A stretch of DNA of 64,000 nucleotides from Alphaproteobacteria bacterium (GTDB lineage: Bacteria > Pseudomonadota > Alphaproteobacteria > Paracaedibacterales > VGCI01), in contig JAIESE010000013.1 in assembly GCA_019746225.1 (NCBI GenBank), forward strand, positions 42,063 to 106,062, read 5' to 3'. The notes below the pieces were generated by a model. It had not been told where the DNA came from. It saw only the letters and a program-made list of their open reading frames with translations, and ran no database searches. Each line of letters opens with the position of its first letter. The stretch's first letter is position 1. Positions 1-38,927 of the stretch are shown piece after piece. The position numbers and the translations under genes are program-made.

Positions 1-1
1 T

Positions 2-3512: not shown

Positions 3513-3514
3513 TG

Positions 3515-4096: not shown

Positions 4097-4139
4097 GAGG
4101 TGGCCAAATTGGCCAGCTCGAGGTGGTCAAGTTGGCCAG
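4097..4139. repeat. Two tandem 20-bp units, each carrying the near-palindrome TGGCCAAnTTGGCCA
   Basis: GAGGTGGCCAAATTGGCCAG (4097-4116) and GAGGTGGTCAAGTTGGCCAG (4120-4139) repeat with a 23-bp period. They lie about 75 bp from the 3' end of the integrase remnant. Confidence 0.6.
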
Positions 4140-4213
4140 ATGGATTTGCTATCTTTTCAGAAAGAAATAATGCTCAAAAAAATTCAATTTAAAAAATGTC
4201 AACTTTCGTAATT

Positions 4214-4540
4214 CTAAGGAAGATCAATATTTGCTTTTAAAGTCCTTTCTTGAATCTTTTGTGTCTTGTTTCCAAAAAACTCCGCAGCCTGTCTCAACGG
4301 TGCATCCGCTAGATGTGCGTATCTTTGCGTCGTTGAGGCTTGGGTGTGTCCTAATAGTTTTCCAACTATACTCAAACTTAAACCACTGGAAACCAGGTGC
4401 GACGCATGGGTGTGACGTAAATCATGAAGACGAACGTTTTGGAGGCCGGCTCTTGTTTGAATGGTCTTCCAGGCTTTTTTAATATCTTGAAGAGATTGTC
4501 CCGCCACTTTACCAGGGAAGAGATATTCTTTGGCAAGAAT
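4214..4540 (-). pseudogene. 3' remnant of a tyrosine recombinase (integrase) gene
   Basis: The translation ILAKEYLFPGKVAGQSLQDIKKAWKTIQTRAGLQNVRLHDLRHTHASHLVSSGLSLSIVGKLLGHTQASTTQRYAHLADAPLRQAAEFFGNK is nearly identical to the C-terminus of the intact integrase at 18080-19267. DNA identity is about 90% by eye. An in-frame TAG sits at the 5' boundary and the N-terminal ~290 codons are missing. Confidence 0.9.
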
Positions 4541-4819
4541 CTAACCATGATCACATATGAAATCCCGAACAGTTTTGGCAAGTAAATTTAAATGACGTAT
4601 AATTAATGATAGAGTTAGCTCTATCAAAATTTAATGTTTTTGGCTTAAGTCTAAAGATTGTGATAAAAAATACCGTAGTCAATAAATAAAAATCCTTAAA
4701 AATAAGAGTAATTAACAATGCTTAAGAGTTTTTTGGTGTTATTTTTTGCTTGGGGCGAATTCACCAACTTTTGCAATGCATCAAGGTAAAGAATTTTTTA
4801 TCTTTTAGAATCGTTTCAT

Positions 4820-7800
4820 TTAAAGAATGTTTTGAAGTTTTGCTTGAATTCTGGTTTTGTGGGAAGATTCTGGAAGACGAGCATTTATCACTTGCAAGGC
4901 TTGATTGAACAGAGCAATGGCTTTTTGATCCAGCTCTCGAGATTCAATAATATTCTTATTTTCTTCAGCACGCTTCGACTTTTTAAGACACAGCTGAGCC
5001 AAATCTTCTAGAATGAGATATTGTTCTGTGTGATCCGCTGCTTGGAATTTTTGTAAAGCCTTAAGCAAATATTTTTCTGCCTCATTAATATTGCCTTCCA
5101 ACAGATAAACTCGTCCTAAACCATAGACCACACGAGCCACTTCCAAATGGTCTCTACCATAATTCCTTTCATAGATGAGCAGGCACTTTTGAAAGAGTTC
5201 ATGAGCTTCTTTGTAGTTCCCAAGGTCTGCCTGAACATTGCCAAGATATACCTTGGCGCGCGCAACTTCGACATAATGATCAGGTAGGTTTTTGCTATAA
5301 ATGGCCAAGCTTTTCTCGAGATACTCCTTTGCGGTTTCATAATCTCCTAATGTTCTATGAACATTTCCTAAATGAGCCAATGACCAAGCAAAGGCAACAT
5401 GATTCACAGGAAGGTGAGCACTGTAGATTTTGAGGCTTTTTTCAAATAATTCTTTTGCTTTTGTAAAGTTGCCCAAATCTCTATTTACATTCCCGAGACG
5501 AGCGTAAATTCTCCCTATCTCAACTTGATTATCTGGCAGGTGCTTTTTGTATAGCTGAAAACTCTTTTCATACAACGCATGAGCTTGCATGTAGTTTCCC
5601 ATATCTTTATTTATATTACCTAAATTTGAGAGAGCCCATGCATAGGGAATGTAATTTTCCGGAAGATGACTTTGATAAATTAACAGACTTTCCTCAAGAA
5701 CTTCTTTCGCTTTGTCATATTCACCCACATTACGATAAATAATACCTAAATGAATTAAAACTTGGGTAATGCCCGTATAGTTTTGTGGAAGATGGTCGCG
5801 GTAAATACGAAGACATGCGTTGAGAATGGATTTAGCTTTTTCATAGTTTTCCAACTCACCCTGAATGATACCCAAATAGCTCATAGCTTTTGCAAGGCCA
5901 AGCTTATTATCAGGAAGATCCCTTTGGTAAATGAGGGTTGCTTCTGTCAGATGGTTTTTTGCTTCTTTAAAACTACCAAGGTCCCAACAAGCATTGGATA
6001 GGTAAACCAACGCTTGTGCAACACGAGACACGTTTGCATATGGTTCTTTATTGAGTTTTGCAAGACTTGTTTCGAGCAGTACTTTCCCGTGTTTATAATT
6101 TCCTAAAGTATAATATAGATTCCCAAGCTCACACTCTATAGAGCCCTCTATCGTAGGTGTTAAAAGGCTCTTATGAGATAAAATTCGCTCATAATGATTT
6201 TTTAGCACCCTCATTTGCTGAAGATCTTCTTTATCTTCAATAACTTGTGAATATTCTTCTAGTCTTTTAGAAATGTATTCAATATTATGATGTTTTTTTT
6301 CCAAATCTAATATTTTTGTCAAATAAGCTAATATAATCTCTTGCGTGCTTCTATGAATGTAATAGCTTGAACCAGATGTTGCTGAGCTGGATAAATCATT
6401 GTTGATAAGAGAATATTTTTTTAAATGATATATGAAATTATCAATAACGACATCACTTTTATACGCGTCTAATAAATCCTTTGAAATATTTTGAGAATCA
6501 ATCAAGCTTATAAGGAGTAAAAGATCGCCAAAATCCTTATGAATATCCATAAGTGACCGTACTGCGGCAACGATAATTCCATAACGAGTCTTAGAATACT
6601 CACTTCTATCTTGTAAGACATTTTTTTGAAGAAGTGAAAAATCTGCATTAGAAACATTTAGATGCTCAAGATACTTAATATAGCTAATGTTTGTTGCTTT
6701 TAAATAATAAGCCGCAATACAAATATCTAAAGGAAAAGGTGGAAGACTCTTTAAAAACGTTATGGTATGTTCTTTTAGAGGAGGTTTAAAGTCTTGTTTG
6801 CTACCTTCTTCCATAACCTTCATAAATAAATCTAACTTTTCATCCTCCTCGAGTTCGTCAACTTGTATGACATGATTGACATGTGTGTTACTTTGAATAT
6901 GAGTATCTCGCGTTGTAATTATTACTTTGCCTTTTCCCCAAAAGGTCGCATCATGTGGAAAATATTTGTGAATATCAGAAAATTTTTCGACGTTATCATA
7001 AAAAAGAAACCAATCAGCCCGAGTCTTTAGACGTTCTCTGACAAATTGGATAAGTTTTTCTTCCTTTTCTGTAGGGTCTTTAATGTTATTTAAAGCAGTA
7101 AATACCTCTTTATCTTCGCGTGTTTTTAAAAGGGCCCCTGCAAGCTTCTCGAAAGAATCTTTGAGACTTTCCATTGATTCTGCATTCAATTCCCATGAGT
7201 TATCATTCTCTTTCTGATCTAAATATTGACGAGCAAGGAAGGTTTTCCCAGCCCCTCCAGGGCCAACAAGAGCAACTGTTTGAATGCCACCTTCCCCCAT
7301 CAGTTTATCGCCTAATAATGACAATAATTTAGGTCGCTGAAGAGTTGATGATAGTGACGCCTTCCTCGTAGTTAACGGTGTAAGATATCTATTTTTACCC
7401 TCAAACAAGAGAAACCCAGCTCCTACCAAGCTCAAACTTAACAAACATGCTGCAGTTAGATATCTCTTCCTAGGTCCCCAGAAAAAACCATTTTTAGGTG
7501 AGGGTTCCTCTTTCTTTGCACCATTATCCTTTGGTTTTGAACGTGACGGGAACATTTGTGGCTCCTCTAAAGGAACATCATTTGCGGCAAAAGGCTTAAA
7601 CTCATGAATATAAGGATCGATATTTATTAAAGGATAAATTTTTCTTACAAGGTCAAAAAAGGAGAAAAAGTAATTAGATTGATCCAGAAAATGAAAGGGC
7701 CCCCTTTCATAGGATCTTTTTGAAAATGTCCGCTTTCCGTCTTCTAAAACTAGGTAATATACCCGTTGCATATCATTTTGAGTGGACGAAGTTAAAAATC

Positions 7801-8377
7801 TTTTTTCAGGGACAATTTGAGGATCATTCAAATACTTCTCTGTAAGGATACAAAGGATATTCTCTTTTGAATAAGAGTTGATAACCTTTTCAAGGTTAAT
7901 GAGATTTTTAAGGAGAGGATTTTCTTTTTGAAAAATTTCCATCCCAGCCAAACTTAAATGATATTTTATTTGGTCGAGGATGGCCCCCTTCTCTTTGTTT
8001 AAACTTGGATCATACAGGAGGACCAAAAAATCTTTTGGATTTATATGAGATATTTTTTTTAAGGTGTTCTCAAAATGAAAATTTGCCATTAGCTGTGAAT
8101 AATACGGCTTGAAATGTACGTATTGATCACAATTTTCTACAAAATCAATGATGCCTTCTCGAGAGTTGCACTCCAGCTTAAGCATTATGTTACGTATATG
8201 AGTATCAACTGTTCTGGAAGAGATGTTCAGAAAGAAGGATATCTTTTTAGATGCTCTGCCATTGAGTAAGCACGAAATAATATCTATTTCTCTTTGAGTG
8301 AAATTTATCCCTCGCATTGTTTGAAGATGCACAGAATAAAACTTATTCAACAATGTATAATTATCTTTGATTTTCAA
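4820..8377 (-). CDS. STAND regulator, copy A: N-terminal LuxR/GerE HTH, one hydrophobic TM-like helix, NB-ARC P-loop NTPase, C-terminal TPR array (1185 aa)
   Basis: HTH: FTQREIDIISCLLNGRASKKISFFLNISSRTVDTHIRNIMLKL. Hydrophobic helix: YLTAACLLSLSLVGAGFLLF (aa 306-325). Walker A: GPGGAGKT. Walker B-like: WFLFYDNVE. RNBS-B-like: GKVIITTRD. GLPL-like: LPPFPLDICIAAYYL. About ten 42-aa TPRs follow. The listed start is TTG, so the true start is uncertain (alternative Met21 at 8317). Confidence 0.9.
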   Translation of the reverse strand: MKIKDNYTLLNKFYSVHLQTMRGINFTQREIDIISCLLNGRASKKISFFLNISSRTVDTHIRNIMLKLECNSREGIIDFVENCDQYVHFKPYYSQLMANFHFENTLKKISHINPKDFLVLLYDPSLNKEKGAILDQIKYHLSLAGMEIFQKENPLLKNLINLEKVINSYSKENILCILTEKYLNDPQIVPEKRFLTSSTQNDMQRVYYLVLEDGKRTFSKRSYERGPFHFLDQSNYFFSFFDLVRKIYPLINIDPYIHEFKPFAANDVPLEEPQMFPSRSKPKDNGAKKEEPSPKNGFFWGPRKRYLTAACLLSLSLVGAGFLLFEGKNRYLTPLTTRKASLSSTLQRPKLLSLLGDKLMGEGGIQTVALVGPGGAGKTFLARQYLDQKENDNSWELNAESMESLKDSFEKLAGALLKTREDKEVFTALNNIKDPTEKEEKLIQFVRERLKTRADWFLFYDNVEKFSDIHKYFPHDATFWGKGKVIITTRDTHIQSNTHVNHVIQVDELEEDEKLDLFMKVMEEGSKQDFKPPLKEHTITFLKSLPPFPLDICIAAYYLKATNISYIKYLEHLNVSNADFSLLQKNVLQDRSEYSKTRYGIIVAAVRSLMDIHKDFGDLLLLISLIDSQNISKDLLDAYKSDVVIDNFIYHLKKYSLINNDLSSSATSGSSYYIHRSTQEIILAYLTKILDLEKKHHNIEYISKRLEEYSQVIEDKEDLQQMRVLKNHYERILSHKSLLTPTIEGSIECELGNLYYTLGNYKHGKVLLETSLAKLNKEPYANVSRVAQALVYLSNACWDLGSFKEAKNHLTEATLIYQRDLPDNKLGLAKAMSYLGIIQGELENYEKAKSILNACLRIYRDHLPQNYTGITQVLIHLGIIYRNVGEYDKAKEVLEESLLIYQSHLPENYIPYAWALSNLGNINKDMGNYMQAHALYEKSFQLYKKHLPDNQVEIGRIYARLGNVNRDLGNFTKAKELFEKSLKIYSAHLPVNHVAFAWSLAHLGNVHRTLGDYETAKEYLEKSLAIYSKNLPDHYVEVARAKVYLGNVQADLGNYKEAHELFQKCLLIYERNYGRDHLEVARVVYGLGRVYLLEGNINEAEKYLLKALQKFQAADHTEQYLILEDLAQLCLKKSKRAEENKNIIESRELDQKAIALFNQALQVINARLPESSHKTRIQAKLQNIL

Positions 8378-8589
8378 AGCCTTGCGCGCAACTCTAAATT
8401 GTATGGTTGGTCTTTGTTTATTGATTCAAACTCTATACAGTTTCTACCTGGTGGTCTACGTAATTTTTACATAGATGAAGTCAAATACGTTTTTTTTGGG
8501 TTAGATTATTTGTTTGTTACTAACGTAAATTAAGAAATGTAAGGTATGCAGTTATTTTACGAGCCAACTTGAATAAAAAGGAGAAAGTC

Positions 8590-11500
8590 ATGAAAAGAAA
8601 AGGTTTATTAATAAAAAGCTTGTTATTAAGTACCACGATTATGTGTGGACTCACTATGGGTGCACAACAGATACAAGAAGGCCTTGTTTATTATGGTGGG
8701 GATGGATTAACAGCACACCGAGAACAATTTACTATGGTAGGTAATCAAAGAGTGGAGCAACCCCATGGAGAATTGCCAGAACATAAAGGGTGTACGGTCA
8801 ACTATGTAGAAGCATTCTATAAGAACCAAGCCCCTATACCTTTGGCGAGACAGGGTGAGAATGCAGGAGGGTATAGATACGATGGATTTATAACAGATAA
8901 TTTCCACCCGACAATTCGAGCACAGCATCTCCTTTACAGCGACGGAGTAGATATCTATGAACCTCATGCTACGCAAGAATTGTGGACTCGTGGACAGGGA
9001 ACTCCTGGACAAGAGGATGTTCGTATTTTTATATCATCTCATAAAGATAGCCTTAAGTTGAACTGGACGCCAGGTATACGCATTGATACCCCCAATGGTA
9101 AATTACCAGCTGGCCTTTATCAATTTAGTTCATCAGAAAATTTAACTGAAGAAGTGCCTTACCATCAGAATAATGTTAACGGCGTAAGAACAAATTATTT
9201 TCGTAAGGAAAAATGGTCAAAAGTAGGAAGTGAGCAATCTTTTTACATAAACATGCCCTCGCATCACCTTGTCAGTGTTCCTGGAATGCCAGAATATATT
9301 CTTAATGAATTTCCTGAAGCGCCAAAAGATTTTGTTGATTTGAAAATGATAATTGATGCATTTGAACAGGCAGTGGCTAATAACCTAAATTTGCAACGTC
9401 CTGAGCAACGAATCATTTTTATTGGGGATGCCCGAGTCGGGAAAGACGCTCTTGCACATTATTATGCAGGTTCTGATTTATCGGTTGCGCTCAATAGGGG
9501 TTTTAGACCAGCGCGGGTTGAATTACAAGGCAATCCTCAATTAGGCTCATTAAGTGTTGTGTCTGGTATTATTGGCTCCCGAAATGTTGGCTCTTGGTTT
9601 GATCAAGCAGGCCAACGTGTCATTTGGACAACGCCTGGAGCTAATGGAATTGAAACCCCTTTGAATGATATTTTGAATGTTAAATCTCTTAAAACATTAT
9701 TAACAAAAAACAACCCATCAAAATACGTTTTAACCATTAAAGAGTCAGATTTATTTGAAGCAAATTATAAAAATCTAACTGAGGTTTTAATAAGGTTATC
9801 GCGCATGTTTGGGTATCAAGTACGGGAAGATGGTACCGTTGATATGGGGATAAATAATGATTTAAAAAATGCGCTTTCACTTGTCGTATCTCAAACTGAT
9901 CGTATGAATCAAGGTGACTTGGTTGATGGAGTCTATTTAGACCAAAATGGAGTTCAGCAGCCAGTCAAAGGCATATTACGAAATATTTTAGAAGTCATGC
10001 AAAGTGCACCTTTGAACTATGATGCTGGCGGCATGGGCATCTTGGAATATTTAGTAAATCATCCTGAACGTGTTTCTTTCTTCTCTTTGCCAAATCTCGC
10101 CAATGCACTCTATGAACCTAGAGATCCCCTCAACACAAGAGAATCCATTCAACAGAGTATAGATGTAGCAAATGGAAACGAGTCGCGTTATATGGCAGTC
10201 CAAAACCCAGCTGATATTCATATTGTTTTTAAAGAAGAATCAAATACATTCATTAAACAAGTATTGGATAAATTAAATAATCAGGTGACAAAATACTTAA
10301 GTGAGGACGCAGTTGAAACAATATGGAATCTTTGCAATCAAAAAATACTTGGGCATGAAGGAACCGTAGATGAACTTCGTGATAAGCTTCTAGCTTTCTC
10401 TAATAAGTTTAACAACGCTAACACGCAACCTCTAGACGATTTTGTGCGGGACATTGAGAGTCTAATAGGTACGAATGGAATCACAAGGAATATAAATCAT
10501 ATACGCTATTTACAAGAAAAGTTGGGTATAAATACCAATTATGCTCGCGATCAGTGGCTTGCTCCGTTGATGTCTGTCATGAACAACATTCGTTACTTAA
10601 GCTCAAAAAATGTAGTCGATGGAAGTCAAAATTTAGATACATTAAATGGAATTAACTATATTTTTGATAGCCAAAATAAAGAATTAACGCTTGTTGGCTA
10701 CTTACTTGGCATGACCGATGTGAAGAAGTTTGTAGAAAATAATCTTACGCGTAGTGGAATTACAGGCCTAACTCCGAATACTGAAATACGAAAACTCAAT
10801 CTCCTATCTCTACGAAATTTGTTAGCAGATGGTAGTTTAAGTTTGAAAGAAGCAACGGTCGTTGGAATAACACCCGAAATAGTTCAGACAACCCAGTCTG
10901 TCACGCTCGATCTTTCTGCTAGAGCCCATCCATCTATGAGTAAGGCTGCCAATGATCAAGTTGGAACGCCAGGTCTTCCCGGAAGAAACGGTGGAAGCTT
11001 AGTCTTATTAGCAAATAAATTTACTGATGCCTATAAAGTAGCCCACCCACAAAATCCAACCACATTTGAAATTAAGAAAGACGGGGGGTCGGGACAAAAC
11101 GGCCAAGAAGGGGCAATAGCACATCGGTGCCTACACCAGCGGATGGTACTACGGGAGATTGGAACGAGCATAGTTCTACGCCGGTTTCCGTAGGTCGAGG
11201 AGTAGATGATCCTGAAAAAAATAGATATTATGTGTCTGCATTGAAAGTGAAGGGTGGAACTGACGAAGATAGAAAGGGAAATCCTATTCCATGGTATAAA
11301 GCCCATTTGAGCATTGATTATACTAAGAAAGAGTATAAACAGGCAGGCATAAAAGGGACTAAAGGTAGCAATGGTAAGAATGGCGGAGCCAAAGGACTAA
11401 AAGGGCATCAAGGTCTTTTAGTTGTGGATTGTCCCAAAATAAGCCCTATCGTCGCAAGCAATCCACCCCAGGATGGGTCTGATGGAAGTGGGGGTAGCGG

Positions 11501-11882
11501 TAGCGCAGGAGGGCTCGGAGGACGTGTTAATTATAAAATTACGTACAATTATCGGCCAGGTAAATATGATCATAATGGTACAGAAATTTGGGCTAATGCT
11601 GAGGATGGAACAAGCCATTTAGGAGATGGGGGTAGGTATAGAGAGGATGGTCCTCGTCTTCTCGACAATGAGCGTGGACCTTTAGGTGATCCTGGGGATG
11701 CTGGGACTTCAGGAGCCAATACTGCTGGTCAAGTTGCTCCATCCCCCCAAATTACCGCTGACCAATTGGAAACATTAAAGACCAATAAGCTACAACTTTA
11801 TAGCACCCAATATTATGCACTTGCCGTAGATCCTGTTAAACAAAAGCTTCTCGGTAAATTTACAAACATTCCGGCCCAATAA
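8590..11882 (+). pseudogene. Signal-peptide P-loop-GTPase-like / glycine-rich (collagen-like) protein, copy A, split by a -1 frameshift
   Basis: Two overlapping ORFs, 8569-11193 (frame 1) and 11127-11882 (frame 3), together are colinear with the intact paralog 27154-30033. ATG at 8590 follows AAGGAG. Signal peptide: MKRKGLLIKSLLLSTTIMCGLTMGA. The Walker A is degenerate: GDARVGKD versus GRTGSGKS in copy B. Gly-rich tracts include GTPGLPGRNGG, DGGSGQNGQEG, GIKGTKGSNGKNGGAKGLKGHQG and DGSDGSGGSGSAGGLGG. Confidence 0.75.
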
Positions 11883-11883: not shown

Positions 11884-11912
11884 AAGGGGGGGCTATACCC
11901 CCCTTACTTTTA
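11884..11912 (+). terminator. GC stem-loop with a short T run between the GTPase-like gene and the CdiA-like gene
   Basis: AAGGGGGG-gctata-CCCCCCTT is followed by ACTTTTAT. This may be a terminator or attenuator. Confidence 0.4.
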
Positions 11913-11939: not shown

Positions 11940-14900
11940 ATGAAGTACGTAGTATCTAATAACTCAGTTCACAAGGTATTCACTTTGAAAGGATGCGTTA
12001 CAAGAATTGTCATTCTTTCTCAAATAAGCTCCCATATTGCTGGAGCTATGGAAGAAGCCTTAACGGATAATCCTGTTAAGGTGTCTTCATCTTCCACTCT
12101 CGCGTATGGATTTTCTGCTTTTCCAACCAACAAGTACATTGAGACTCAACAGCAAGCTCTTAATTATTTTGGGTCACTTGATTTAACTCCAAAAGATATA
12201 CTTATATTTCCTGCGCCAATAGCACAAGCTCTGATTGTCAATCGGATTGAAAGTGGACAACCATCTAATATTGCGGGTTCAATAAAATCAGATGAATTAT
12301 CCTCCATGATGTTTAAAAATCCAAAAGGGTTTGTTATAAACAACCCTTTAATTAGCAATGTTTTAGACCTGGATTTCGTAGCTCAAGCCGATGAGTATTT
12401 TGATAACTATTCGAAAGAACGAGGTGCGATAGAAATAAAAAGCACTTCTCTTTCAAGTGGCGAACGTTTAGAAAACTTACGCCTTAAGGCTGAGTCTATC
12501 TGCATTCAAGAATCTGTTCTAGATCCATTAAATTCACTATCTATTGAGTTGCTAAAGGGAGATAAGGATCGGCTTTTGTCTAATGCCGATAAAAAACAAG
12601 CATTATACATAAATCCAAACACGATCTTGCGGGCGGCAAAACTATCAATTCATTCCCACAATCAGTTGCCCTTAATAATCGAAGGTGTTTTACAGAGTAC
12701 CGGCGGAAATATTGAGATCTTTTCAGATGGAGATATTGTGCTTCATAACGTTTCTTGTAGTGGAAAGCTGATTATTCATACTAATGGAAGGGTTATTTTT
12801 GAAAATGATGCTGCCGTAATTGGTGGTGTGGAAATACATGCTTTATCTTTCGAGAACAAAGGACGCCTCATAACTAAGGGTAATATGGATTTTGGAAAAA
12901 CCCAAATCATCAACAAAGGTCTTCTGCAGACTGAAACAGACATTTCTTCTGAGACATTACATAATAGTAAATCTGGTCATATAATCGCCAGAACCCTTGA
13001 TAATCTTATGTCTATTTTGCCCCATAATGAAGGAACGATAGAATTTTTAGATGCATGTACATTAAATGGTGAACATTCGCTCGATCTGAAAGGAACTTTG
13101 GTCGTCAACGGCCTTCTAGATTGTCAATTATCCGGTGTTGACTCCACGCTTACTTTAAGAGAGGGCAGTCAAGTAAAGGCGTTAAAAGGTGCGACTGTCA
13201 AACTTCATACTCTCACTAATCATGGAAAGTTGAACATTACCGGAGAAAATCTAGGATTATATCTCACATGTTTAAATAACTTTGGGGATATTGAATCAGT
13301 AAACGGCACTTACGGTGAGGTATTCAAGTTAGTAAATAGCGCCACCATCCGCACGCTTGGCCATTCTACGCTTAACTGTACAACCGTTGAAAATAAAGAA
13401 TCCGGCAGGTTTTATACGGCAGGGGTTCATCATGTTAATGTGACGGGAAGTTATCTTGACTCAGGTTATGTTTATTCTCCCACATTATTTTTGCTACAAG
13501 GGGCTTATCTTCAATTTCTTCCTCATCACCAATCATTTATTGCTAATGGGGTTATTAAAGCGACGCAGAAGTTAACGGTTGCTTCAGAAGCAATTTTGAA
13601 CATGAGACACCGTCTGCAATTTTACTCTGATAACACGATTGTCCATCAAGGTGTAAATAATCAGCTCCAAGAATATCACAAGTCTGATGAGGATGCTCTT
13701 TATGACACTTACTATTTGCTCAACCCAGATTTCATTGCGCCCAGATGGGAGCGGAATGTTTTTAAAGCTTACGTTAATACGTTTTTAACAGGGCATTGGG
13801 GGGACTATTTAAGAAATTTGCTTAAAGAACCTTATGGCATTGTAACAATGGCCCGGGGCGATCTCACACGACGGGGCAATGACAATATCCAAGCGGGAGG
13901 TTCACGCTATACAACTTTTGGTCAATTTAAAGGGAGCAAATCTTATATAAAAACGGGATATTTCCCAGATAATCATGCCCAAATACAAGCAGATAGTGGC
14001 AACTTTTCAAATGTTACCTTAAATGCTCTTGGGGGAAAGGTTGCTGTGAAGTTAGATAAGGATATGGAAGCAAAGAAATTTCACGCTCAAGCAAAGACTA
14101 TTGCTGAGTTAAACGTAAGGGGCTCGATGAGTCTTAAAGATGCATCCATTGCAGCCAGACTAGTCAGTTTAGAGGCTCAAAAAGATATGCAGATGAACAC
14201 TGTCACGTTACAAGCCCAAGATCATATCCATGCTTCGACTCCCGGTAAATTTCAAGCTTCAGATTTACAATTGAAAGGCGGTGCAACGACACACATAGAA
14301 GGGGATCAAGGTATCCACATACAAGGATTGCAGAATCAAAACAAAACAAGATTGAAATCATCTAAGCAAGTAATATTAGACAAAGAGGCTAAAGGAGGTG
14401 AGTTAAGCATTGAAACAACTGAAAACTTTACCAATAACGCTTCTGTTGAAGTTGATAAATTTTCCCAGAGCAGTCTCCATTTTCAAAATAATAAAAAGGT
14501 TGTAGCGAAAGGTACCCTGAAATCAAAAAGCCAAACCTATGGCGATACAGAAGAAGCTATGTTGGAAGGTTCTGAAGTAGTGCTTGATGCGCCTTTAACA
14601 AGAGGAGGATTTAAGGGAATAGTTAAAGCGGATATGGCTGAAATTCTCCTAAAAGATATGCAGCTGCAAGAACTTTTACGGCACATAGATATTCAAAACA
14701 CATTAACCTACACAGTTGATGATCATCTGGTAGTTGATGAGGATATTATCATAAAATGCAAGATGGTATTGCACGCAGTAGGTCTAGAAAATAAGTCAAG
14801 GATTACAGCAGATAAGAACTTTTTGTCATTTATAAAAAGAAATATCTTGAATGGTGGTCTCTTTCTTGGTCAAGGTTCCGCATACTTTGAAGCCGGAGGT

Positions 14901-17900
14901 GCTTTTACTAACACTGCCCAGTTAAAAGCAAAAGAAGGTTTAGGGGTCAAAGCGGCCCAAATATTAAATAAAGGTGACGAAAAGCTTCCTGCGGTAATGG
15001 AAGGCCAGGATATTTCGTTAGAATCTACCCAAGGCAGCATTGAAAGCCAGTACGGACAATTTAGGGCAAAACAATCATTTCAAGCTCGATCGGCTCGCGA
15101 TACAACTCTCGATGCTTCAGAAGTTGACGCTGGTCAATCCATAAACATTACCTCGGCACGCGATACTTTGATCCAATCCGTTGTTAAGAGACTAAAGTCT
15201 GGTGAGGGAAACTATAAAGATATTGCTGTCCGTTCATTGCTTAATTCTGGCGGATCAATAGCTCTTTTATCGGGTAACAATACAACTCTTATTGGGGCAA
15301 GATTAAAGGCAGCGCTTGATATTGGAGTTGCTGCACAGAATGTTTATAGCTTAGCTTTAGGATTAGAAGAACAAGAAACACACGCTATTACTGACGGTTC
15401 TCAGACAAAGTATAAGCTGACAAATGATGTCAGTCAGATACAGGCAGGTGGAAATGTTGGTATTCATGCAAAAGGCATGAACTACCACCAGGCAACAGAT
15501 ATTGTCGCACAAAATTTGTCATTGCTGGGTCAAGATGTTGTGATCGATGACGTTACGGATAAGTTTTACTTATCGGAAACCACAAAGCATGAAGGTGGAT
15601 TGTTCGGTCAAAATACTGAACAACAGATGCAACGGCAAGAAAGTACATCAAGAGGTGCTAATTTCAACGTTTTTGAAAGAATAGGAGTGAAGGCATTAAA
15701 TAGTATTTCTGTAAAAAATATAAAATGCCAAGCTCAAGAGACCATTCTAGATTCTCCAGAAGTTAAAATTTTGTTGGGGCGTAACGAAATGCAATCCGCA
15801 TCAACAGAAAAGAGCTCCAATGTTTTATGGGTGCGAACCACACAATCCTCCGATGAAAAATTAGATCATCAGGCTTCTGAGTTTAAGGGAGCCGTTAAAA
15901 TCAATGCTAAAAACGCAATGATAGAAAGAGTTGCAGGCCAAACTCTGGGTTTTATGAAGACCTTGTCGGGAGATATACAAAATCTATCCGAATCAGAAGT
16001 CGTTGATTACTATAATAGAAAATCGAAAACAGTCGAGGGGCCATCTCAAGCCTTCGCCATGGTAATTGCTCTAGCTGTCTCAATGACAGGTGTTGGCAGT
16101 GCTTTGGGTGCAGCGCTCGTTGGCACAACATTGTCAACTACTCTCGCGGGAACAATGGTATCCGCTGCTGTGACAACTCTATGTAGTCAAGCAGCGGTAC
16201 AGCTTATAGCTGCCAAAGGCAATATCATACAAGCAGCAGAAGCCATGGCAAATACTAAGGTTCTTGAATCTATGGCGCTGAGTGCGATAACTGCAGGGAT
16301 TACAAGTCAACTTTGTGACGTATTGCATCTTCAGTTAGACCCCATAAAAAAGAATTTATTTGACAATATAAAACAGAAAGGTGTTGAGAATGTAGTAAAT
16401 CTAGGGGCTAATATTGTTCAAGGGGGAGATGCCGATATAGCCCTTCGCAATGCTGCAGTTTCGACAGTAGTTGGGGCTTTGAGTGCATCAGCCGCGTATG
16501 AAATTGGAAATGGGTATTCGCATAACCATGTTGATCCAGTAACTCATAAATTATTGCATGCTGCTTTGGGTGCAGCTTCAGGAGCTCTACAAGGAGATGA
16601 CCCCGCTAAAGGAGCCCTAACTGGAGCCATAAGCGCTACGGTAGCTGTGACTGTTACAGATATTATTCAAAAGGACTCAAAATCAGTTGCCAAAAGGGCT
16701 CTAGATAGAGCTGAAAGAGAAAATATAGAAACAACGCCTGAGAATATGCGCGCTCTTATTCGTCAAGAAATACAAATGACCGGGGCTGGTGGAAAAATTA
16801 CAAGCGCTATTACGGCAATGCTTTTAAAACAGGATATGAATATAGCGATCGGAGCCTCTACGAATGCAATAGAAAATAATTGTCTGGAATCAATGGCTGC
16901 GCTTGCACTCCACGAGGCCAATGTCATGGCTGAAGCTAGACAAAGTGAAGGTACTGGGAAAACGACTCTATTTGAGAAAGACCGAGAGGATACTGAATGG
17001 AGTGGAGAAATTCCTTCTAAAGCACATGTTGGCATTGAGGGGGAAAAGTCTTATGTCGCTCATTATATAGCGGGCAAAAAAGCGCAATATGAGCATGATG
17101 GAAAATCGTGGGGTGAAAAAGAAATAGCACAAGCCCGTAAGGAGGCAGAAACTGAATTAAAAGGCATTGAGCAAGTTACATGGCATGAAGATGTTTTGTT
17201 AGGAGGGGCAAATATTGCGCGCAAAGCCGGTGCACATGGTTTAAAAGCAGCGGGAACCTACACTGCAGAAAAAATTCGAGAATTTGCCAAAGGGAAAGTT
17301 CAAGAGAAGGTTCAGGAGATATTAGTAGGTGAAAGTTGCTTAGATGCTGGCCAGTTTGTTGAAAGGGAAGCCCACAACCTTGGTGCAAGTGATAAAATGG
17401 CTAAAGGGCTCGGGGCAGCGACAGAACAGGGTTGTGAGCTATTCGTTTCCAATGCAATAAGCAAAGCAGCTTCGGGAGCCCGCTCATCCTCATCAGATAT
17501 CCCTCATATAGAGGCGATTTCATCAGATCATGATCAAGTTGCGCATAAAGGTTATTACGGACGAAAAGCAGATAGGGCTGAAAAACATAAATGGGATAAG
17601 GCGGTAAATGAGGCTCAACCAGCAGTATACAGCAAACATCAAAAAGCGACAACGCGAGAAGAAGCTGAAAGATTGGCACGTCCTGGAAAACCATCACAAT
17701 ATTTTCCAGGTCAAAATGTAGAAGATTTGGAAAGGGAAGCTTTAAAAAGGGGAGCAAAACTTCCTGATCTTAAAGACAAAGGAAGCACTTATGTTGAATA
17801 TGCTTTTCCTTATGAGATTGGAGTTGCTAATGGAAAACCTACTAAGAGCATACGGGTTGAAATGACAAATTCTAGTGTTCCCGAGTTTCATGGACATCCC

Positions 17901-17918
17901 AGACCTGAAAAAAAATAA
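11940..17918 (+). CDS. TpsA/CdiA-like filamentous-haemagglutinin-family exoprotein with an ENN-delimited C-terminal toxin region (1992 aa)
   Basis: An AAGGAGG RBS is present. The TPS-domain-like segment is ALIVNRIESGQPSNIAGSIKSD..MFKNPKGFVINNP (compare ILNRVTG..S.I.G and the NPNGI motifs). A long beta-helix-type repeat region follows. A Gly/Ala-rich helical DUF637-like segment is GPSQAFAMVIALAVSMTGVGSALGAALVG... A VENN-like motif, STNAIENN, lies at nt 16866-16880 and is followed by a 345-aa C-terminal region. Confidence 0.85.
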   Translation: MKYVVSNNSVHKVFTLKGCVTRIVILSQISSHIAGAMEEALTDNPVKVSSSSTLAYGFSAFPTNKYIETQQQALNYFGSLDLTPKDILIFPAPIAQALIVNRIESGQPSNIAGSIKSDELSSMMFKNPKGFVINNPLISNVLDLDFVAQADEYFDNYSKERGAIEIKSTSLSSGERLENLRLKAESICIQESVLDPLNSLSIELLKGDKDRLLSNADKKQALYINPNTILRAAKLSIHSHNQLPLIIEGVLQSTGGNIEIFSDGDIVLHNVSCSGKLIIHTNGRVIFENDAAVIGGVEIHALSFENKGRLITKGNMDFGKTQIINKGLLQTETDISSETLHNSKSGHIIARTLDNLMSILPHNEGTIEFLDACTLNGEHSLDLKGTLVVNGLLDCQLSGVDSTLTLREGSQVKALKGATVKLHTLTNHGKLNITGENLGLYLTCLNNFGDIESVNGTYGEVFKLVNSATIRTLGHSTLNCTTVENKESGRFYTAGVHHVNVTGSYLDSGYVYSPTLFLLQGAYLQFLPHHQSFIANGVIKATQKLTVASEAILNMRHRLQFYSDNTIVHQGVNNQLQEYHKSDEDALYDTYYLLNPDFIAPRWERNVFKAYVNTFLTGHWGDYLRNLLKEPYGIVTMARGDLTRRGNDNIQAGGSRYTTFGQFKGSKSYIKTGYFPDNHAQIQADSGNFSNVTLNALGGKVAVKLDKDMEAKKFHAQAKTIAELNVRGSMSLKDASIAARLVSLEAQKDMQMNTVTLQAQDHIHASTPGKFQASDLQLKGGATTHIEGDQGIHIQGLQNQNKTRLKSSKQVILDKEAKGGELSIETTENFTNNASVEVDKFSQSSLHFQNNKKVVAKGTLKSKSQTYGDTEEAMLEGSEVVLDAPLTRGGFKGIVKADMAEILLKDMQLQELLRHIDIQNTLTYTVDDHLVVDEDIIIKCKMVLHAVGLENKSRITADKNFLSFIKRNILNGGLFLGQGSAYFEAGGAFTNTAQLKAKEGLGVKAAQILNKGDEKLPAVMEGQDISLESTQGSIESQYGQFRAKQSFQARSARDTTLDASEVDAGQSINITSARDTLIQSVVKRLKSGEGNYKDIAVRSLLNSGGSIALLSGNNTTLIGARLKAALDIGVAAQNVYSLALGLEEQETHAITDGSQTKYKLTNDVSQIQAGGNVGIHAKGMNYHQATDIVAQNLSLLGQDVVIDDVTDKFYLSETTKHEGGLFGQNTEQQMQRQESTSRGANFNVFERIGVKALNSISVKNIKCQAQETILDSPEVKILLGRNEMQSASTEKSSNVLWVRTTQSSDEKLDHQASEFKGAVKINAKNAMIERVAGQTLGFMKTLSGDIQNLSESEVVDYYNRKSKTVEGPSQAFAMVIALAVSMTGVGSALGAALVGTTLSTTLAGTMVSAAVTTLCSQAAVQLIAAKGNIIQAAEAMANTKVLESMALSAITAGITSQLCDVLHLQLDPIKKNLFDNIKQKGVENVVNLGANIVQGGDADIALRNAAVSTVVGALSASAAYEIGNGYSHNHVDPVTHKLLHAALGAASGALQGDDPAKGALTGAISATVAVTVTDIIQKDSKSVAKRALDRAERENIETTPENMRALIRQEIQMTGAGGKITSAITAMLLKQDMNIAIGASTNAIENNCLESMAALALHEANVMAEARQSEGTGKTTLFEKDREDTEWSGEIPSKAHVGIEGEKSYVAHYIAGKKAQYEHDGKSWGEKEIAQARKEAETELKGIEQVTWHEDVLLGGANIARKAGAHGLKAAGTYTAEKIREFAKGKVQEKVQEILVGESCLDAGQFVEREAHNLGASDKMAKGLGAATEQGCELFVSNAISKAASGARSSSSDIPHIEAISSDHDQVAHKGYYGRKADRAEKHKWDKAVNEAQPAVYSKHQKATTREEAERLARPGKPSQYFPGQNVEDLEREALKRGAKLPDLKDKGSTYVEYAFPYEIGVANGKPTKSIRVEMTNSSVPEFHGHPRPEKK

Positions 17919-18079: not shown

Positions 18080-19267
18080 TTAAGAGGACGCTCTACCTGC
18101 TTTATTACTTCTGGAACTGATTGCTTGCGCCTTATTTCCAAAAAACTCCGCAGCCTGTCTCAACGGTGCATCCGCTAGATGTGCATATCTTTGTGTCGTT
18201 GAGGCTTGGGTATGTCCTAGTAGTTTCCCAACAATACTCAAACTTAACCCACTGGAAACCAGGTGCGAAGCATGGGTGTGTCGTAAATCATGAAGACGAA
18301 CGTTTTGTAGGCCGGCCTTTGTTTGAATAGTCTTCCAGGCTTTTTTAATATCTTGGAGGGACTTTCCATGAACTCTTCCAGGGAACAAATGGTCATCCCT
18401 GCTTATTTCTTTCATGCCCTTTAAGAGTGTAATAACTTGAGAAGAAAGGGGGAGATGTTCCATACGATTTTGTTTGGTTGTATGGGCCGGCTTCGTCCAA
18501 ATGCCTTTCTCCAAATCGAATTGATCCCATGTAGCACTTAAGACTTCTCCGCGCCTGGAGCCTGTGAGCACAAGCAACCAAATGGCGTTAGCAACATTTT
18601 GATTGTGATAGGATTCAAGTGAGCCCCATAATTTTTCGAGCTCAACTTCATCAAGCCAGCGATTGCGTTTTTGTTCCTGGTATTTTTGAACACCATTCAC
18701 AGGATTATCCGTGCGCCATTTCCATTGGATAGCGATATTGAGCATTTTGCTTAATAATGCCCGAACACGATTAGCCATGTAGGGGGTGTCCTTTAGCTCA
18801 TGATGTAAATGTTGAATATCTTGTGCTGTGAGTTCCTCAACTTTTTTGTCAGCCCAACGTTTAAGAATAATTCCTTCAAGCATCTTTTCGTCTTCCCGAT
18901 AGCTCTTTGGTCTTTTGTTGGTTTTGGCATAGAACTCTAAATATTCCTTGGCAAGATCCGCGAATGATGGTTTGATTCTCCTCGCCTGTACCTCTTGTGA
19001 TGGATCGCCCCCTTTGGCTACATCACCTAAAAGTCCTTTGGCAATTTCACGAGCTTGCTCTGCGGTAACCGCTCCATGAACGCCGATCTTTTTGCGACGT
19101 GTCCGGAAAAATTCATTACGATATTGCACAAAATATGTCTTGCGACCTGTTGGGTAAACCCTTACACCAAACCCCCTGATCTCAGAATCCCAAACAAGCA
19201 GTTCCTCACTCTTATCTGGCTTAATGCTTTCAACAACCCACTTGGTTAGCTTCCTGCCGTCTTTCAT
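18080..19267 (-). CDS. int: P4-type tyrosine integrase (395 aa)
   Basis: The N-terminal arm-binding-type segment is GFGVRVYPTGRKTYFVQYR. The catalytic-region motifs are LHDLRHTHASHL (HxxR) and LLGHTQASTTQRYAHL (catalytic Tyr). Confidence 0.95.
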   Translation of the reverse strand: MKDGRKLTKWVVESIKPDKSEELLVWDSEIRGFGVRVYPTGRKTYFVQYRNEFFRTRRKKIGVHGAVTAEQAREIAKGLLGDVAKGGDPSQEVQARRIKPSFADLAKEYLEFYAKTNKRPKSYREDEKMLEGIILKRWADKKVEELTAQDIQHLHHELKDTPYMANRVRALLSKMLNIAIQWKWRTDNPVNGVQKYQEQKRNRWLDEVELEKLWGSLESYHNQNVANAIWLLVLTGSRRGEVLSATWDQFDLEKGIWTKPAHTTKQNRMEHLPLSSQVITLLKGMKEISRDDHLFPGRVHGKSLQDIKKAWKTIQTKAGLQNVRLHDLRHTHASHLVSSGLSLSIVGKLLGHTQASTTQRYAHLADAPLRQAAEFFGNKAQAISSRSNKAGRASS

Positions 19268-23520: not shown

Positions 23521-26500
23521 TCACACTTGGACCTTAGCTAGCTTTTCTTTAATTTTTTTTATATGGGCAGAATCTTCTGGGAAATGAGCTTTTACAATAT
23601 CATAGGCTTGTTTTAGGTAGTTATAGGCTTGATCTCTAAAGAGACCTTGAGTGTTTACAGTCAATGAAGCCTTTTTGAAATAGAGGTCGCCTAGGCTTTC
23701 AAGAGCTGCATATTTTTCAGGATGGTTGTTATTTTGATAAATCCCTAAAGCTTTAGATAGGAAATTATTAGCGTTATCCAATTCTCCTTCCATAAGATAG
23801 ACTCGACCAAGATCCAATATAATATGCGCTAAGAATATATTGGATTCACCATGGAGACTTTGATATACAACTAAAGCTTCTTTAAGAAGGGTTTTTGCTG
23901 TTATATAATTCCCTATTTCTCCCTCAAAGATACCTAAATTCACCTTGGCATTCGCAATTCTCATCGTATTTTCAGGGCAATATGCCTTATACATTTCTAG
24001 GGCGTTTTTAAGCAGGGGTTTAGCTTTTTCAAACTTTCCCATTTTTCGGTAAATGTTTCCTAGATTTGTTAAAGCAAAAGCTACCGCCGAATTATTCTCA
24101 TATTTATCCTTTTTATAGATTACAAGTGACTCTTCGAGTAATTTTGCAGCTTCCTCATAGTTGCCGAGGTCACCATGAGTTATCCCCAAAAGAACTAGAA
24201 TATGAGCAACCTTGAAATGAACTTCAGAAAAATTTCGTTTGGAAATCTCAAGGCTTTGTTCTAACAGATCTCGTGCTTTCTTATGGTTTCCAAGATAAGA
24301 ATGCACAATCGCTAAATGTGATAATGGTGTTAATGGTTCAGATAATAAGAAATCTTCTTTGGGAGATTGATGCTTGTTTATATCAATACACATTTCAAGT
24401 AGATTTTTGGCCTGACCATAATCGCCTAAATCTCTATAAACATTCCCCAAATAAAAGAGGGACCGACTATATTCTAATTGATTGTTGGGGAGATGGTGTT
24501 TATAAAGTGAAATGCTTTTCTCGAGGCTATCTTTAGCCGCTACATAATTACCTAAGGTCCGGTATGTATTTCCTAAAAAAGACAAGGTTCTGGCAAGAAG
24601 CATATCATCTTTATTTTTGAGAGAATTCAACGTAGCGATATTTTTTTCTAAATATATTCTAGAGTTTATATAATCGTTTAAAATAAAGTACATATATCCT
24701 AAATTTGTGGCCAACGTCGCCTTATTAGATTCATTTAATAAGTGATTATGGGTTAGAAATTTTTCTAAATGTTCTTTAAAGCGTCTTATCTTTATCGTAT
24801 TTCCCTTTTCGATTATATCATTTGTATGTACTTCTAAAACATGAGAAATATTTTTCAAAATTTCATTGTTGCTATCCAGTCTAACTCTTCTTGAAATATA
24901 GGCTAAAATGATCTCTTGTATCGAACGGTGAAACGATAATGTGGCTTCACTAGAATCAGAAGATGTATCTGTAACAAGAGAGTACTTTTTTAAATTATAA
25001 ATGAAATTATCAACAATCGTATGGTCTTTGTATTTTACTAACAAGTCTCTAGGTATATTTTGGGAATCAATAAGACTGACCAACAAGAGGAGATCTCTAA
25101 AATCGTTGTTTGTATCTATAAGTTTGTTAAGAGACAACGCAACGATCCCATATCGCGTCTTGGTGTAATCCCCTGCTTCCTTTAAAAGGGATTCTTGGAC
25201 TATTGTGAAATCTTGATTATCGTGAGTTAGGTTATCAAGATATTCTGAGTAGGTAATATTTGTGGTTTTTAAATAATAAGCCGCAATGGATACATCAAGA
25301 GGAAATGGGGGAAGCTTTTCAAGGAATATCTTTGCTTCTTCTGTCTGTGCGTGTGAAAAAACGTTTTCCTTTCCCCCACTCATAATCTTAGAAAAAAGAG
25401 CCAGTTTTTGCTGAGGGGTAAGTTCTTCGATTTGGAGTGTGCTACCAATATGCTTATTGTTTTGAATGTTGCTGTCCCGTGTTGCAAGAATAACTTTCCC
25501 CTGGCCCCACGTGGCAGAATCTTGAGGAAAGTGTGTTTGAATATCTGAAAACTTTTCCACGTTGTCAAAGATAAGAACCCAATCTGAATGTGACCTCAAG
25601 CGCTCTTTTACGAATTGGGTGATCCTGTCTTCTCTTTTATTCATAGGCTTTATATTTTGAATCTCTTTTAGGAGTTTTTGATCTTCATCAGTCTGAGCGA
25701 GAGCTTGGGATAAGGCTTCAAATGATGAATTAAGCATCTCATGAGTTTCTGCATTGATTTCCCAAATAACATTAGCTTTTTGTGCATGGGCAAATTGCCT
25801 TGCTAGGGTCGTCTTTCCTGCTCCTCCCGGTGCTATGAGGGCGATGGTTTGTATGCCCTTTTGTTCCGTAAGCTTCTTCTCTATCTTGGCAAGAAGCTCT
25901 GGTCGTGAAAGAAAAGATGACTCTGATGGAATAGCTAAATCTGAACGAATAACCGTTTGTCTTTGAGCTGTATAATAGTAGCCCCATTTATAGATCAGTA
26001 AGCCAGTACATGATAACATTATCAGAACAAGCAACCCAAAGAGAGCAAGCCAACTTCTCCGTTTCGACAAACTCTTGATACTCTTCTCTTCTTTTGTAGG
26101 AGTTTGAAGAAAGGAAGTTTTACCTTTCTGATCAAGCTTTGTGATGAGATCATCGAAATTAAAACCTGGAAAGAGGACCTTTAAAATCTCAATCAATGAG
26201 GCTAAATATGTCTTTTGGTCCAAGGAGAGAAGAACTCTTTTCTTTTTATCAATCACAAACAAAAGGGCATTGGTTGAACTTTCATTTTGGTCTTGTGACT
26301 CCTGAGATGCCTTTATACCCTCATTTTTTTCAAGTTCTTCTCTAAGGATGTTTGGAATAACATAAAGAGCATACCTTGAAGTGAGAGATTGTATCTCTTT
26401 CATAAGAGAAGACATTGTACATGGAATACAACGAGTCTCAAGTGTAACAATCACCCCAGCAGCTTTGAGAGGCTGTTCCAGTTGAGAAATGTCAGAGCTT

Positions 26501-26862
26501 TCTGTCCAAAGAATTAGAGAACACGATGGTCCAACGTCACCAACTTTTTTAGAGACTTCTTTTAGCTTCTGCTCAAAGGCAAATTGACAAACAAGTTCTG
26601 AATAATGCTGTTTCAAAAGATGAACTTTATCTGAGGCTTCAAGAAAGTCAATGATGCTCTCACGAGAATTGCACTCAAGCTTTATAGAGATGTTATGAAT
26701 ATAGTTTTCAACGGTTTTGGGAGAAAGTGACAAAAAAGAGGCTATTTTTTTAGCCGTCCTACCACTCAAGATACAGGCAAGAATGTCAATTTCACGGGGT
26801 GTAAATTTAATTCCATTTATTGAGCCTGCTTCAAGGATAGTTTTATGATTCATGTCTGTCAT
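23521..26862 (-). CDS. STAND regulator, copy B: LuxR/GerE HTH, TM-like helix, NB-ARC, TPR array (1113 aa)
   Basis: HTH: FTPREIDILACILSGRTAKKIASFLSLSPKTVENYIHNISIKL. Hydrophobic helix: WLALFGLLVLIMLSCTGLLIY (aa 271-291). Walker A: APGGAGKT. Further motifs: WVLIFDNVE, GKVILATRD and LPPFPLDVSIAAYYL. A TPR array follows. Confidence 0.9.
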   Translation of the reverse strand: MTDMNHKTILEAGSINGIKFTPREIDILACILSGRTAKKIASFLSLSPKTVENYIHNISIKLECNSRESIIDFLEASDKVHLLKQHYSELVCQFAFEQKLKEVSKKVGDVGPSCSLILWTESSDISQLEQPLKAAGVIVTLETRCIPCTMSSLMKEIQSLTSRYALYVIPNILREELEKNEGIKASQESQDQNESSTNALLFVIDKKKRVLLSLDQKTYLASLIEILKVLFPGFNFDDLITKLDQKGKTSFLQTPTKEEKSIKSLSKRRSWLALFGLLVLIMLSCTGLLIYKWGYYYTAQRQTVIRSDLAIPSESSFLSRPELLAKIEKKLTEQKGIQTIALIAPGGAGKTTLARQFAHAQKANVIWEINAETHEMLNSSFEALSQALAQTDEDQKLLKEIQNIKPMNKREDRITQFVKERLRSHSDWVLIFDNVEKFSDIQTHFPQDSATWGQGKVILATRDSNIQNNKHIGSTLQIEELTPQQKLALFSKIMSGGKENVFSHAQTEEAKIFLEKLPPFPLDVSIAAYYLKTTNITYSEYLDNLTHDNQDFTIVQESLLKEAGDYTKTRYGIVALSLNKLIDTNNDFRDLLLLVSLIDSQNIPRDLLVKYKDHTIVDNFIYNLKKYSLVTDTSSDSSEATLSFHRSIQEIILAYISRRVRLDSNNEILKNISHVLEVHTNDIIEKGNTIKIRRFKEHLEKFLTHNHLLNESNKATLATNLGYMYFILNDYINSRIYLEKNIATLNSLKNKDDMLLARTLSFLGNTYRTLGNYVAAKDSLEKSISLYKHHLPNNQLEYSRSLFYLGNVYRDLGDYGQAKNLLEMCIDINKHQSPKEDFLLSEPLTPLSHLAIVHSYLGNHKKARDLLEQSLEISKRNFSEVHFKVAHILVLLGITHGDLGNYEEAAKLLEESLVIYKKDKYENNSAVAFALTNLGNIYRKMGKFEKAKPLLKNALEMYKAYCPENTMRIANAKVNLGIFEGEIGNYITAKTLLKEALVVYQSLHGESNIFLAHIILDLGRVYLMEGELDNANNFLSKALGIYQNNNHPEKYAALESLGDLYFKKASLTVNTQGLFRDQAYNYLKQAYDIVKAHFPEDSAHIKKIKEKLAKVQV

Positions 26863-38923: not shown

Positions 38924-38927
38924 TTTT

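Follow-up and report, generated by a model that had tools for sequence, protein, structure and literature searches.

The locus described here poses a question of function: is a GTPase-like protein whose nucleotide-binding motifs have degenerated a gene in decay, or a stable component of a larger system that includes the toxin-like gene behind it? The gene lies in a 64,000-nucleotide stretch of an alphaproteobacterial contig (JAIESE010000013.1, assembly GCA_019746225.1; "the window" denotes this whole stretch), which contains two copies, module A and module B, of a divergent gene pair encoding a regulator and a secreted protein. The secreted protein of module A (copy A) is probably a stable pseudo-GTPase, or a rewired GTPase, of an exported family, and belongs to a three-gene module together with a membrane regulator and a CdiA-like toxin. 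This module sits on an integrase-bounded island in a Paracaedibacteraceae-like alphaproteobacterium. The kinds of element involved (a pseudo-GTPase, a CdiA-like toxin locus and a STAND regulator) are known ones, here built on an undescribed protein family. The components of the two modules are as follows.

4820..8377, minus strand: STAND regulator A, 1185 amino acids (Pfam, hydropathy, 35% identity to regulator B)
8378..8589, no strand: divergent intergenic region, a candidate operator only, with a block shared with orthologous loci
8590..11882, plus strand: copy A, predicted exported pseudo-GTPase paralog, 1097 amino acids after frameshift repair
11884..11905, plus strand: GC-rich hairpin followed by CTTTTAT, intrinsic-terminator-like, conserved in orthologous loci
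11940..17918, plus strand: CdiA-like TpsA polymorphic toxin, 1992 amino acids (TIGR01901, DUF637, AIENN, ortholog comparison)
23521..26862, minus strand: STAND regulator B, 1113 amino acids, architecture as in regulator A (Pfam, hydropathy)
27154..30033, plus strand: copy B, canonical family member, 959 amino acids (GRTGSGKS, switch-I Thr298, WDCLGFGD)
30107..30829, plus strand: 240-residue mini-paralog (family signal peptide and C-terminal tail motif)

Copy A and copy B are members of a large, unannotated family of exported dynamin/IRG-like GTPases. An exhaustive profile search recovered 335 cluster representatives at E<=1e-30, a number that grew to 2026 at the looser threshold of E<=1e-10; a word-indexed search with copy B returned only 6 relatives. 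The family architecture opens with a Sec-type signal peptide and beta-rich N-terminal domains that vary, continues with a large-GTPase domain and its helical stalk (IRG/GIMAP/dynamin type), and closes with a glycine-rich domain and a conserved tail. In close relatives the signal peptide is nearly identical (MKRKxLLLLTLLLTQTTPVWAM), and they also have in common a P-loop domain, a helical and a glycine-rich region and the C-terminal tail NPxVSPFxKxFPNL. Carriers include Candidatus Odyssella thessalonicensis, Candidatus Paracaedibacter symbiosus, alphaproteobacterial metagenome-assembled genomes (MAGs), a Coxiellaceae MAG and an Oligoflexia MAG. Pfam and NCBIfam hold no family for copy A and give only sub-threshold P-loop matches for copy B, a PDB sequence search with the family profile found only generic P-loop stretches (midasin, ABC and Clp proteins), and no description of the family or of DUF7932 was found in the literature.

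The P-loop domain is predicted to be of the large-GTPase fold class with a helical stalk, for copy B from a structural model and for copy A from profile alignment only. The AlphaFold2 model of copy B, built from 64 sequences, has a mean predicted local distance difference test (pLDDT) score of 86.3 and a predicted template modelling score of 0.76. When searched against the PDB with Foldseek, it matched Irga6/IIGP1 (5fph), IniA (6j72), GIMAP7 (3zjc) and GIMAP2, BDLP (2j69), mitofusin/Fzo1 (5gof) and GBPs, with E values of about 5e-6 to 4e-4 and probabilities of 0.9-1.0; for the five structures given here by PDB code, E was about 5e-6 to 3e-5 and the probability 0.97-1.0. The GTPase assignment made in the first-pass annotation is thus right at the level of fold class. 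Modelled alone, the C-terminal 355 residues of copy B reach a pLDDT of 90.5. This glycine-rich domain has no real match in a Foldseek search of the PDB (the best is capping protein, E=0.07, root-mean-square deviation >40 Å), and a Pfam scan of 24 C-terminal domains yielded weak collagen matches only. The domain does match predicted giant-virus proteins in BFVD, from Mimivirus LCMiAC02 (A0A481Z1I0, E=2.5e-11) and Terrestrivirus (A0A3G4ZNF8, a DUF7932 protein, E=1.3e-4). Relatives sharing 27-28% identity are also present on two IMG/VR contigs (L019 and L020).

Copy A and copy B are colinear, as had been noted from the sequence, with 22% identity over 836 columns (E=1e-27). The motif strings first quoted for the two copies all lie where they were placed. 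Copy B carries GRTGSGKS (27898-27921), VYWDCLGFGD (28087-28116) and VFTKQF (28318-28335); copy A carries VVSQTDR (9883-9903) and the three altered sites below, each identified in the family motif alignment.

9424..9447, plus strand: degenerate Walker A GDARVGKD (Ser/Thr to Asp)
9562..9591, plus strand: switch-I region SGIIGSRNVG (family-invariant Thr to Arg)
9619..9648, plus strand: degenerate G3/Walker B VIWTTPGANG (Asp to Thr)

The motif positions are homologous according to a profile hidden Markov model built without copy A, and hhalign, run with a profile of the copy A lineage against that of the family, gave a probability of 99.65% and E=3.7e-25 over 413 columns. Among about 150 family representatives, on which all motif counts are based, the Walker A Gly and Lys are present in 149/149 and the Ser/Thr in 146/149; the switch-I Thr (G2) is found in 148/151, and the G3 Asp and Gly in 146/151 and 148/150, respectively. 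Copy A reads TTPG at G3 and has Arg at the switch-I position, so that the proposed loss of the catalytic G1 Ser/Thr and G3 Asp holds and is joined by a third loss, that of the switch-I Thr, which had been overlooked. Copy A alone lacks all three of these Mg/gamma-phosphate ligands together, and Asp321 has also given way to Gly. This degeneracy far exceeds chance drift. G-motif degeneration is also seen sporadically and independently elsewhere in the family, in representatives P0046, P0058 and P0136.

The argument from G4, in which TKQF in copy B was said to have become SQTDR, does not stand. The family consensus at this site is [TS][KQRH]xx, an Asp at the NKxD position occurs in only 18 of about 150 members, and copy A (SQTD, against TKQF in copy B) is one that has it. 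Since there is no conserved Asp at the family G4, guanine specificity is unsupported for the family as a whole.

The altered site is shared by the orthologs of copy A, which together make up a lineage distinct from the canonical members. Proteins P0153 (69% identical) and P0154 (66%) retain RIIF(I/L)GDARVGKDALAHYYAG, SGIIGSR and VIWTTPGA(N/D)G, and the P-loop and its flanks are invariant in the three orthologs of the copy A lineage. Nei-Gojobori ratios of nonsynonymous to synonymous substitution (dN/dS) are 0.14-0.23 overall and lowest, at 0.10-0.19, in the GTPase-like domain; the values are approximate, with dS near saturation (0.9-1.5). Copy A is therefore a maintained gene under purifying selection in which the altered nucleotide site has become fixed.

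The gene downstream begins 57 bp after the copy A stop codon, at the ATG at 11940, in agreement with the spacing first reported, and its assignment as TpsA/CdiA-like is borne out by domain content and by comparison with its orthologs. The 1992-residue product contains a TPS domain at residues 75-141 (TIGR01901, 31.0 bits against a cutoff of 29.1; the Pfam Haemagg_act model finds no match in the protein), DUF637 at residues 1406-1561 (3e-15) and the VENN-type motif AIENN at residue 1643 (nucleotides 16866-16880). It is 68% identical to its ortholog in locus L012 up to residue 1698, just past AIENN, and unrelated beyond, which places the variable C-terminal region from about residue 1699 (about nucleotide 17034). 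A conserved body joined to a variable C-terminus is, judged from these alignments, the classic CdiA pattern. In L013 the ortholog has an LHH nuclease domain at its end (25.8 bits, cutoff 23.3). In L012, two CdiA-like genes (1-5822 and 13358-19045) flank the regulator/copy A pair, and the small open reading frames (ORFs) after them, of 95 and 67 residues, are candidate immunity genes.

Conserved synteny bears out the proposed linkage between the regulator, copy A and the toxin gene. The order STAND regulator (minus strand), copy A ortholog (plus strand), CdiA-like gene (plus strand) recurs in L012, L013 and L014, which represent two ortholog lineages. Canonical family members, single or in tandem, also lie upstream of TpsA-like genes in L003, L004 and L005, in the last of which the gap to the TpsA-like gene is 6 bp, and a STAND gene adjoins the family gene in L003 and in L007 (Candidatus Paracaedibacter symbiosus). 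Because proteins of the first group (the window and L012-L014) and of the second (L003-L005) are only about 23-27% identical, the linkage is old or recurrent, and this argues for functional coupling.

The third component is a regulator whose predicted layout would be unusual. Regulators A and B are paralogous, with the 35% identity extending over about 1190 columns. Regulator A contains a LuxR/GerE helix-turn-helix (HTH) domain at residues 26-79, a transmembrane-like segment at residues 306-327, an NB-ARC domain at residues 355-545 and a TPR array (Pfam GerE 1e-13, NB-ARC 1e-12, TPR_12 1e-56). Regulator B likewise has a single transmembrane-like segment, at residues 269-295. By hydropathy, one such segment lies between HTH and NB-ARC in 6/6 loci, and a single segment, always upstream of the P-loop, is present in 104/109 full-length homologs. 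As the HTH is necessarily cytoplasmic and one membrane segment intervenes, the NB-ARC-TPR part would face the periplasm, the compartment to which the signal peptide assigns the GTPase family. That the regulator controls the copy A and toxin genes is suggested by their gene neighborhood.

Such LuxR-TM-NB-ARC-TPR regulators (TM, transmembrane segment) are multi-copy, with at least 218 clusters, and one MAG ("Alphaproteobacteria bacterium 41-28") has several. The start of the window cuts off a third copy (TPR end at 47-1237), which corresponds to an 1181-residue gene in L015; a small LuxR-only protein is encoded at 49979-50692.

The intergenic regions bear on how the module might be expressed. 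Directly after the copy A stop codon, a GC hairpin with a T-run (11884-11905) has a predicted stability of -18.2 kcal/mol. Equivalent hairpins with differing stem sequences occur in L012 (13298-13320) and L013 (9201-9223), each followed by a conserved Shine-Dalgarno sequence and ATG, and hairpins are also found 3' of family genes in L003 and L004. With this terminator-like element in the gap, co-transcription of copy A and the toxin gene, as in the operon first suggested, would need read-through. Only about 35 bp remain between the hairpin and the toxin ATG for a promoter, and expression of the toxin gene is likely to rely on such read-through, as in an attenuated rather than a simple operon. 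Upstream, the divergent region contains TACGTA at 8457 and ATACGT at 8485, within the intergenic block conserved with orthologous loci. Paired (A)TACGT(A) elements are present in the divergent promoters of the copy A lineage (the window, L012, L013 and L014), forming a perfect 18-nucleotide inverted repeat in L014, and are absent from module B. Since they are confined to this lineage, they may merely reflect orthology. A search for a shared operator found no inverted repeat in either divergent intergenic region of the window, and a consensus promoter scan performed no better than shuffled sequence (24 sites against 25.5 expected).

We propose the following model. The cytoplasmic HTH of the regulator would bind the divergent promoter, and its NB-ARC-TPR part would sense beyond the inner membrane. 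The exported GTPase-like protein could help to release or deliver the large exoprotein, as its partner either in the envelope or on the side of the host; the closest precedent is the periplasmic dynamin-like LeoA, which promotes toxin release by way of vesicles (PMC4159319). For the lineage of copy A, such a role may no longer require GTP hydrolysis, and the hairpin would lower, rather than abolish, transcription of the toxin gene.

Several observations weigh against this model. Both the signal peptide and the regulator topology come from sequence rules rather than a dedicated predictor, the latter from hydropathy, and the crude signal-peptide rule is positive in 78/151 representatives, many of which are perhaps truncated. 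No clear immunity gene is present in the window, where the only ORF between the CdiA-like gene and the integrase is one of 42 residues (17942-18070). Coupling of family protein and toxin is not obligatory, since many family members (module B of the window, L006-L011) have no TpsA-like neighbor, and between copy A and the toxin gene lies a terminator-like hairpin. The last two points lead to the alternative that survives best, although we consider it the less probable account: the GTPase-family and CdiA-like genes could be independent island cargo, separately transcribed and functionally uncoupled. The hairpin between them is conserved, family members often stand alone, the modules are flanked by integrases, and endosymbiont islands gather unrelated effectors (PMC3482391). 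Yet adjacency and order recur in the two divergent locus groups described above, the gap in L005 is just 6 bp, and the roughly 35 bp between hairpin and ATG, with their conserved Shine-Dalgarno sequence, leave no room for a promoter of the toxin gene's own. These features speak against independent cargo.

A second alternative concerns the nucleotide site itself. GDARVGKD may still bind nucleotide, and the kept Lys and invariant P-loop would be as compatible with a functional site as with a structural role. Copy A could then be an active but rewired NTPase in which Walker A, instead of Walker B, now supplies the acidic Mg ligand and the switch-I Arg serves as an in-cis arginine. Representative P0046 (GPTRSGKD) is the only other one with GKD, and it too lacks the G3 Asp (WNCPG); its identity to copy A, 23.6%, is lower than the 29-35% it has with canonical members, so the two are not closely related and the pairing must have arisen at least twice. 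With only 5/151 sequences lacking the G3 Asp, a chance co-occurrence of this loss with GKD is unlikely, and the invariance of the P-loop and the low dN/dS of the GTPase-like domain in the copy A lineage point the same way. Nevertheless, three ligands have gone at once, Asp321 has become Gly, the GKD pairing is found in two lineages only, and P0046 retains the switch-I Thr. We know of no GTPase, among the TRAFAC GTPases, that works with the ligand set of copy A. A rewired active enzyme is accordingly judged unlikely, and a stable pseudo-GTPase is preferred.

A third possibility is that the family protein replaces a missing TpsB/CdiB as the outer-membrane exporter of the TpsA-like protein. The family gene occupies the cdiB position of cdiBAI-type loci and its product has a signal peptide, and a further point against the proposed module is that neither the ORFs of the window nor the genes called around L003 and L012-L015 include a TpsB/CdiB (ShlB/POTRA) gene, the rest of the genome not having been searched. 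The structural model contains neither a beta-barrel nor POTRA domains, the glycine-rich domain has no Omp85-like match, and a TpsB gene may lie in another part of the genome, beyond the window and locus flanks that were covered. This explanation is very improbable.

The window does contain one feature that points to decay and was absent from the first-pass annotation: a -1 frameshift breaks copy A into ORFs 8569-11193 and 11127-11882. The cause is a homopolymer run.

11110..11113, plus strand: GGGG run, one G fewer than in four other assemblies; cause of the frameshift

Adding one G restores the reading frame and yields exactly protein P0152 of 1097 residues, which is encoded intact on four contigs from four JGI samples. 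Over 4-22 kb these contigs match the window at 99.98-99.99% identity, and all read GGGGG; apart from the G-run, a single mismatch, at 19240, is the sole difference across about 22 kb. Since all four near-identical assemblies agree and the inserted G reproduces P0152, the frameshift is a homopolymer error or a rare variant. That copy A is a decaying pseudogene, as its split frame and lost catalytic motifs might suggest, can therefore be put aside as having next to no likelihood, given that a one-G difference is absent from four independent assemblies, that intact orthologs at 66-69% identity keep identical altered motifs, and that dN/dS is 0.14-0.23; only a systematic error common to all four of those assemblies would change this. 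Of the original "pseudo-GTPase or decaying", the first half appears to hold, with motif ligands lost under purifying selection, and the second does not.

A bolder extension of the three-gene module, which we regard as speculative and rather improbable, is that both of its P-loop machines, the exported GTPases and the regulator's NB-ARC-TPR part, work outside the cytoplasmic membrane and, in a bacterium that lives free in the amoeba cytoplasm, are powered or gated by host ATP and GTP entering the periplasm through porins. The module would then be an extracytoplasmic nucleotide-sensing switch for deployment of the CdiA-like protein, copy A would be its nucleotide-independent partner, and the TPR array of the regulator might read the family C-terminal tail.

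The system resembles several known ones in part. Like IRG proteins (Irga6/IIGP1), GIMAPs and dynamin-like proteins (BDLP, IniA, mitofusin, GBP), the family here combines a GTPase domain with a helical stalk and conserves GxxxxGK[ST], the switch-I Thr and a WDxPG-type DxxG motif. In contrast to them, it has no conserved NKxD Asp, adds a signal peptide, beta-rich N-terminal domains and a glycine-rich C-terminal domain, and shares only 12-17% sequence identity; outside the P-loop, neither Pfam nor PDB sequence searches gave a match. Described pseudoGTPases are, to our knowledge, eukaryotic and cytoplasmic. Copy A is like them in having lost G1, G2 and G3 ligands under apparent purifying selection, but it is bacterial, carries a signal peptide and lies within a toxin module.

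A precedent for a dynamin-like protein outside the cytoplasm exists in LeoA and LeoBC of enterotoxigenic Escherichia coli, periplasmic dynamin-like GTPases whose genes lie on a pathogenicity island and which are involved in toxin release (PMC4159319). Compared at the level of fold class, both systems have a large GTPase, reported (Leo) or predicted (here) to lie outside the cytoplasm, that is island-borne, toxin-linked and present as paired or tandem paralogs. According to that study (PMC4159319) the Leo proteins lack a signal sequence; they have no glycine-rich domain, STAND regulator or TpsA neighbor.

The toxin gene shares with CdiA/TpsA proteins the TPS domain, DUF637, the (A)IENN demarcation, a variable C-terminus and, in one ortholog, an LHH nuclease. 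It differs in having no adjacent CdiB/TpsB or evident immunity gene in the window, in its endosymbiont-type host and in having a GTPase-family protein as the product of its upstream gene. GIMAP-type GTPase and STAND domains have been described as part of an endosymbiont-specific effector repertoire (Zhang et al. 2012, PMC3482391). The setting and the domain classes are identical, but there the domains lie inside multidomain effectors (PMC3482391), and here they form a separate exported GTPase family and a membrane-anchored STAND regulator. The regulator, finally, has the HTH, NB-ARC/STAND ATPase and TPR sensor of MalT/AfsR-type STAND regulators; unlike these soluble cytoplasmic proteins, it has a single transmembrane segment between HTH and NB-ARC, a ToxR-like bitopic layout with ATPase and sensor predicted to lie outside the cytoplasm.

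If these assignments are correct, copy B and copy A would constitute a natural active/inactive pair for dissecting a large, unstudied exported GTPase family, one that amoeba symbionts (Holosporales-type alphaproteobacteria, together with Coxiellaceae and Oligoflexia MAGs) have in common and that giant viruses share at the level of fold. The conserved upstream partner of a CdiA-like toxin would be a GTPase-fold protein instead of CdiB, and a widespread STAND regulator would have a predicted extracytoplasmic ATPase and sensor, which is unusual. The locus would also sharpen the question of how a P-loop NTPase acts in the periplasm, a puzzle noted for a dynamin-like GTPase by the authors of the LeoA study (PMC4159319). 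The glycine-rich domain is of interest as a confidently predicted fold without a solved relative.

The family shows further modularity. Extra C-terminal modules in P0033 (1480 residues), P0022 and P0041, comprising a class-3 lipase domain (Pfam 1e-14), proline-rich repeats or a long coiled coil, fit an effector-like, modular family. The 240-residue ORF behind copy B has a signal peptide 77% identical over 26 residues to that of P0008 and the C-terminal tail motif LAPFMRAFPSLP, together with about 100 extra residues, and lacks the GTPase and glycine-rich domains; the family C-terminal tail may be an independent functional module. In one alphaproteobacterial MAG, one of three tandem family paralogs (L001/L004, 3078-7384) is interrupted by an insertion sequence (DDE_Tnp_1).

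The island character of module A is suggested by its borders.

4259..4489, minus strand: integrase 3' fragment (ORF 4214-4507), 93% identical direct repeat of 18125-18355
18080..19267, minus strand: tyrosine integrase, 395 amino acids (domain search)

The module (about 13.9 kb) is bracketed by this 231-bp direct repeat (4259-4489 and 18125-18355), which represents the 3' end of the integrase gene and suggests an integrase-mediated island or a duplicative insertion. Further into the window, LRR (LRR_6/LRR_8) and TPR/Sel1 proteins are encoded at 34082-35326, 38213-38974, 45770-46609 and 47672-48904, amid many ORFs without a Pfam match; such a repertoire is typical of amoeba-associated intracellular bacteria. 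The GC fraction rises from about 0.37 to 0.43-0.51 at about 52000-61500, where housekeeping genes are found (lipoyl ligase, branched-chain amino acid and MFS transporters, UvrB, a porin and tRNA-Ser/Leu), and the low-GC stretch from 1 to 52 kb may be a large accessory region.

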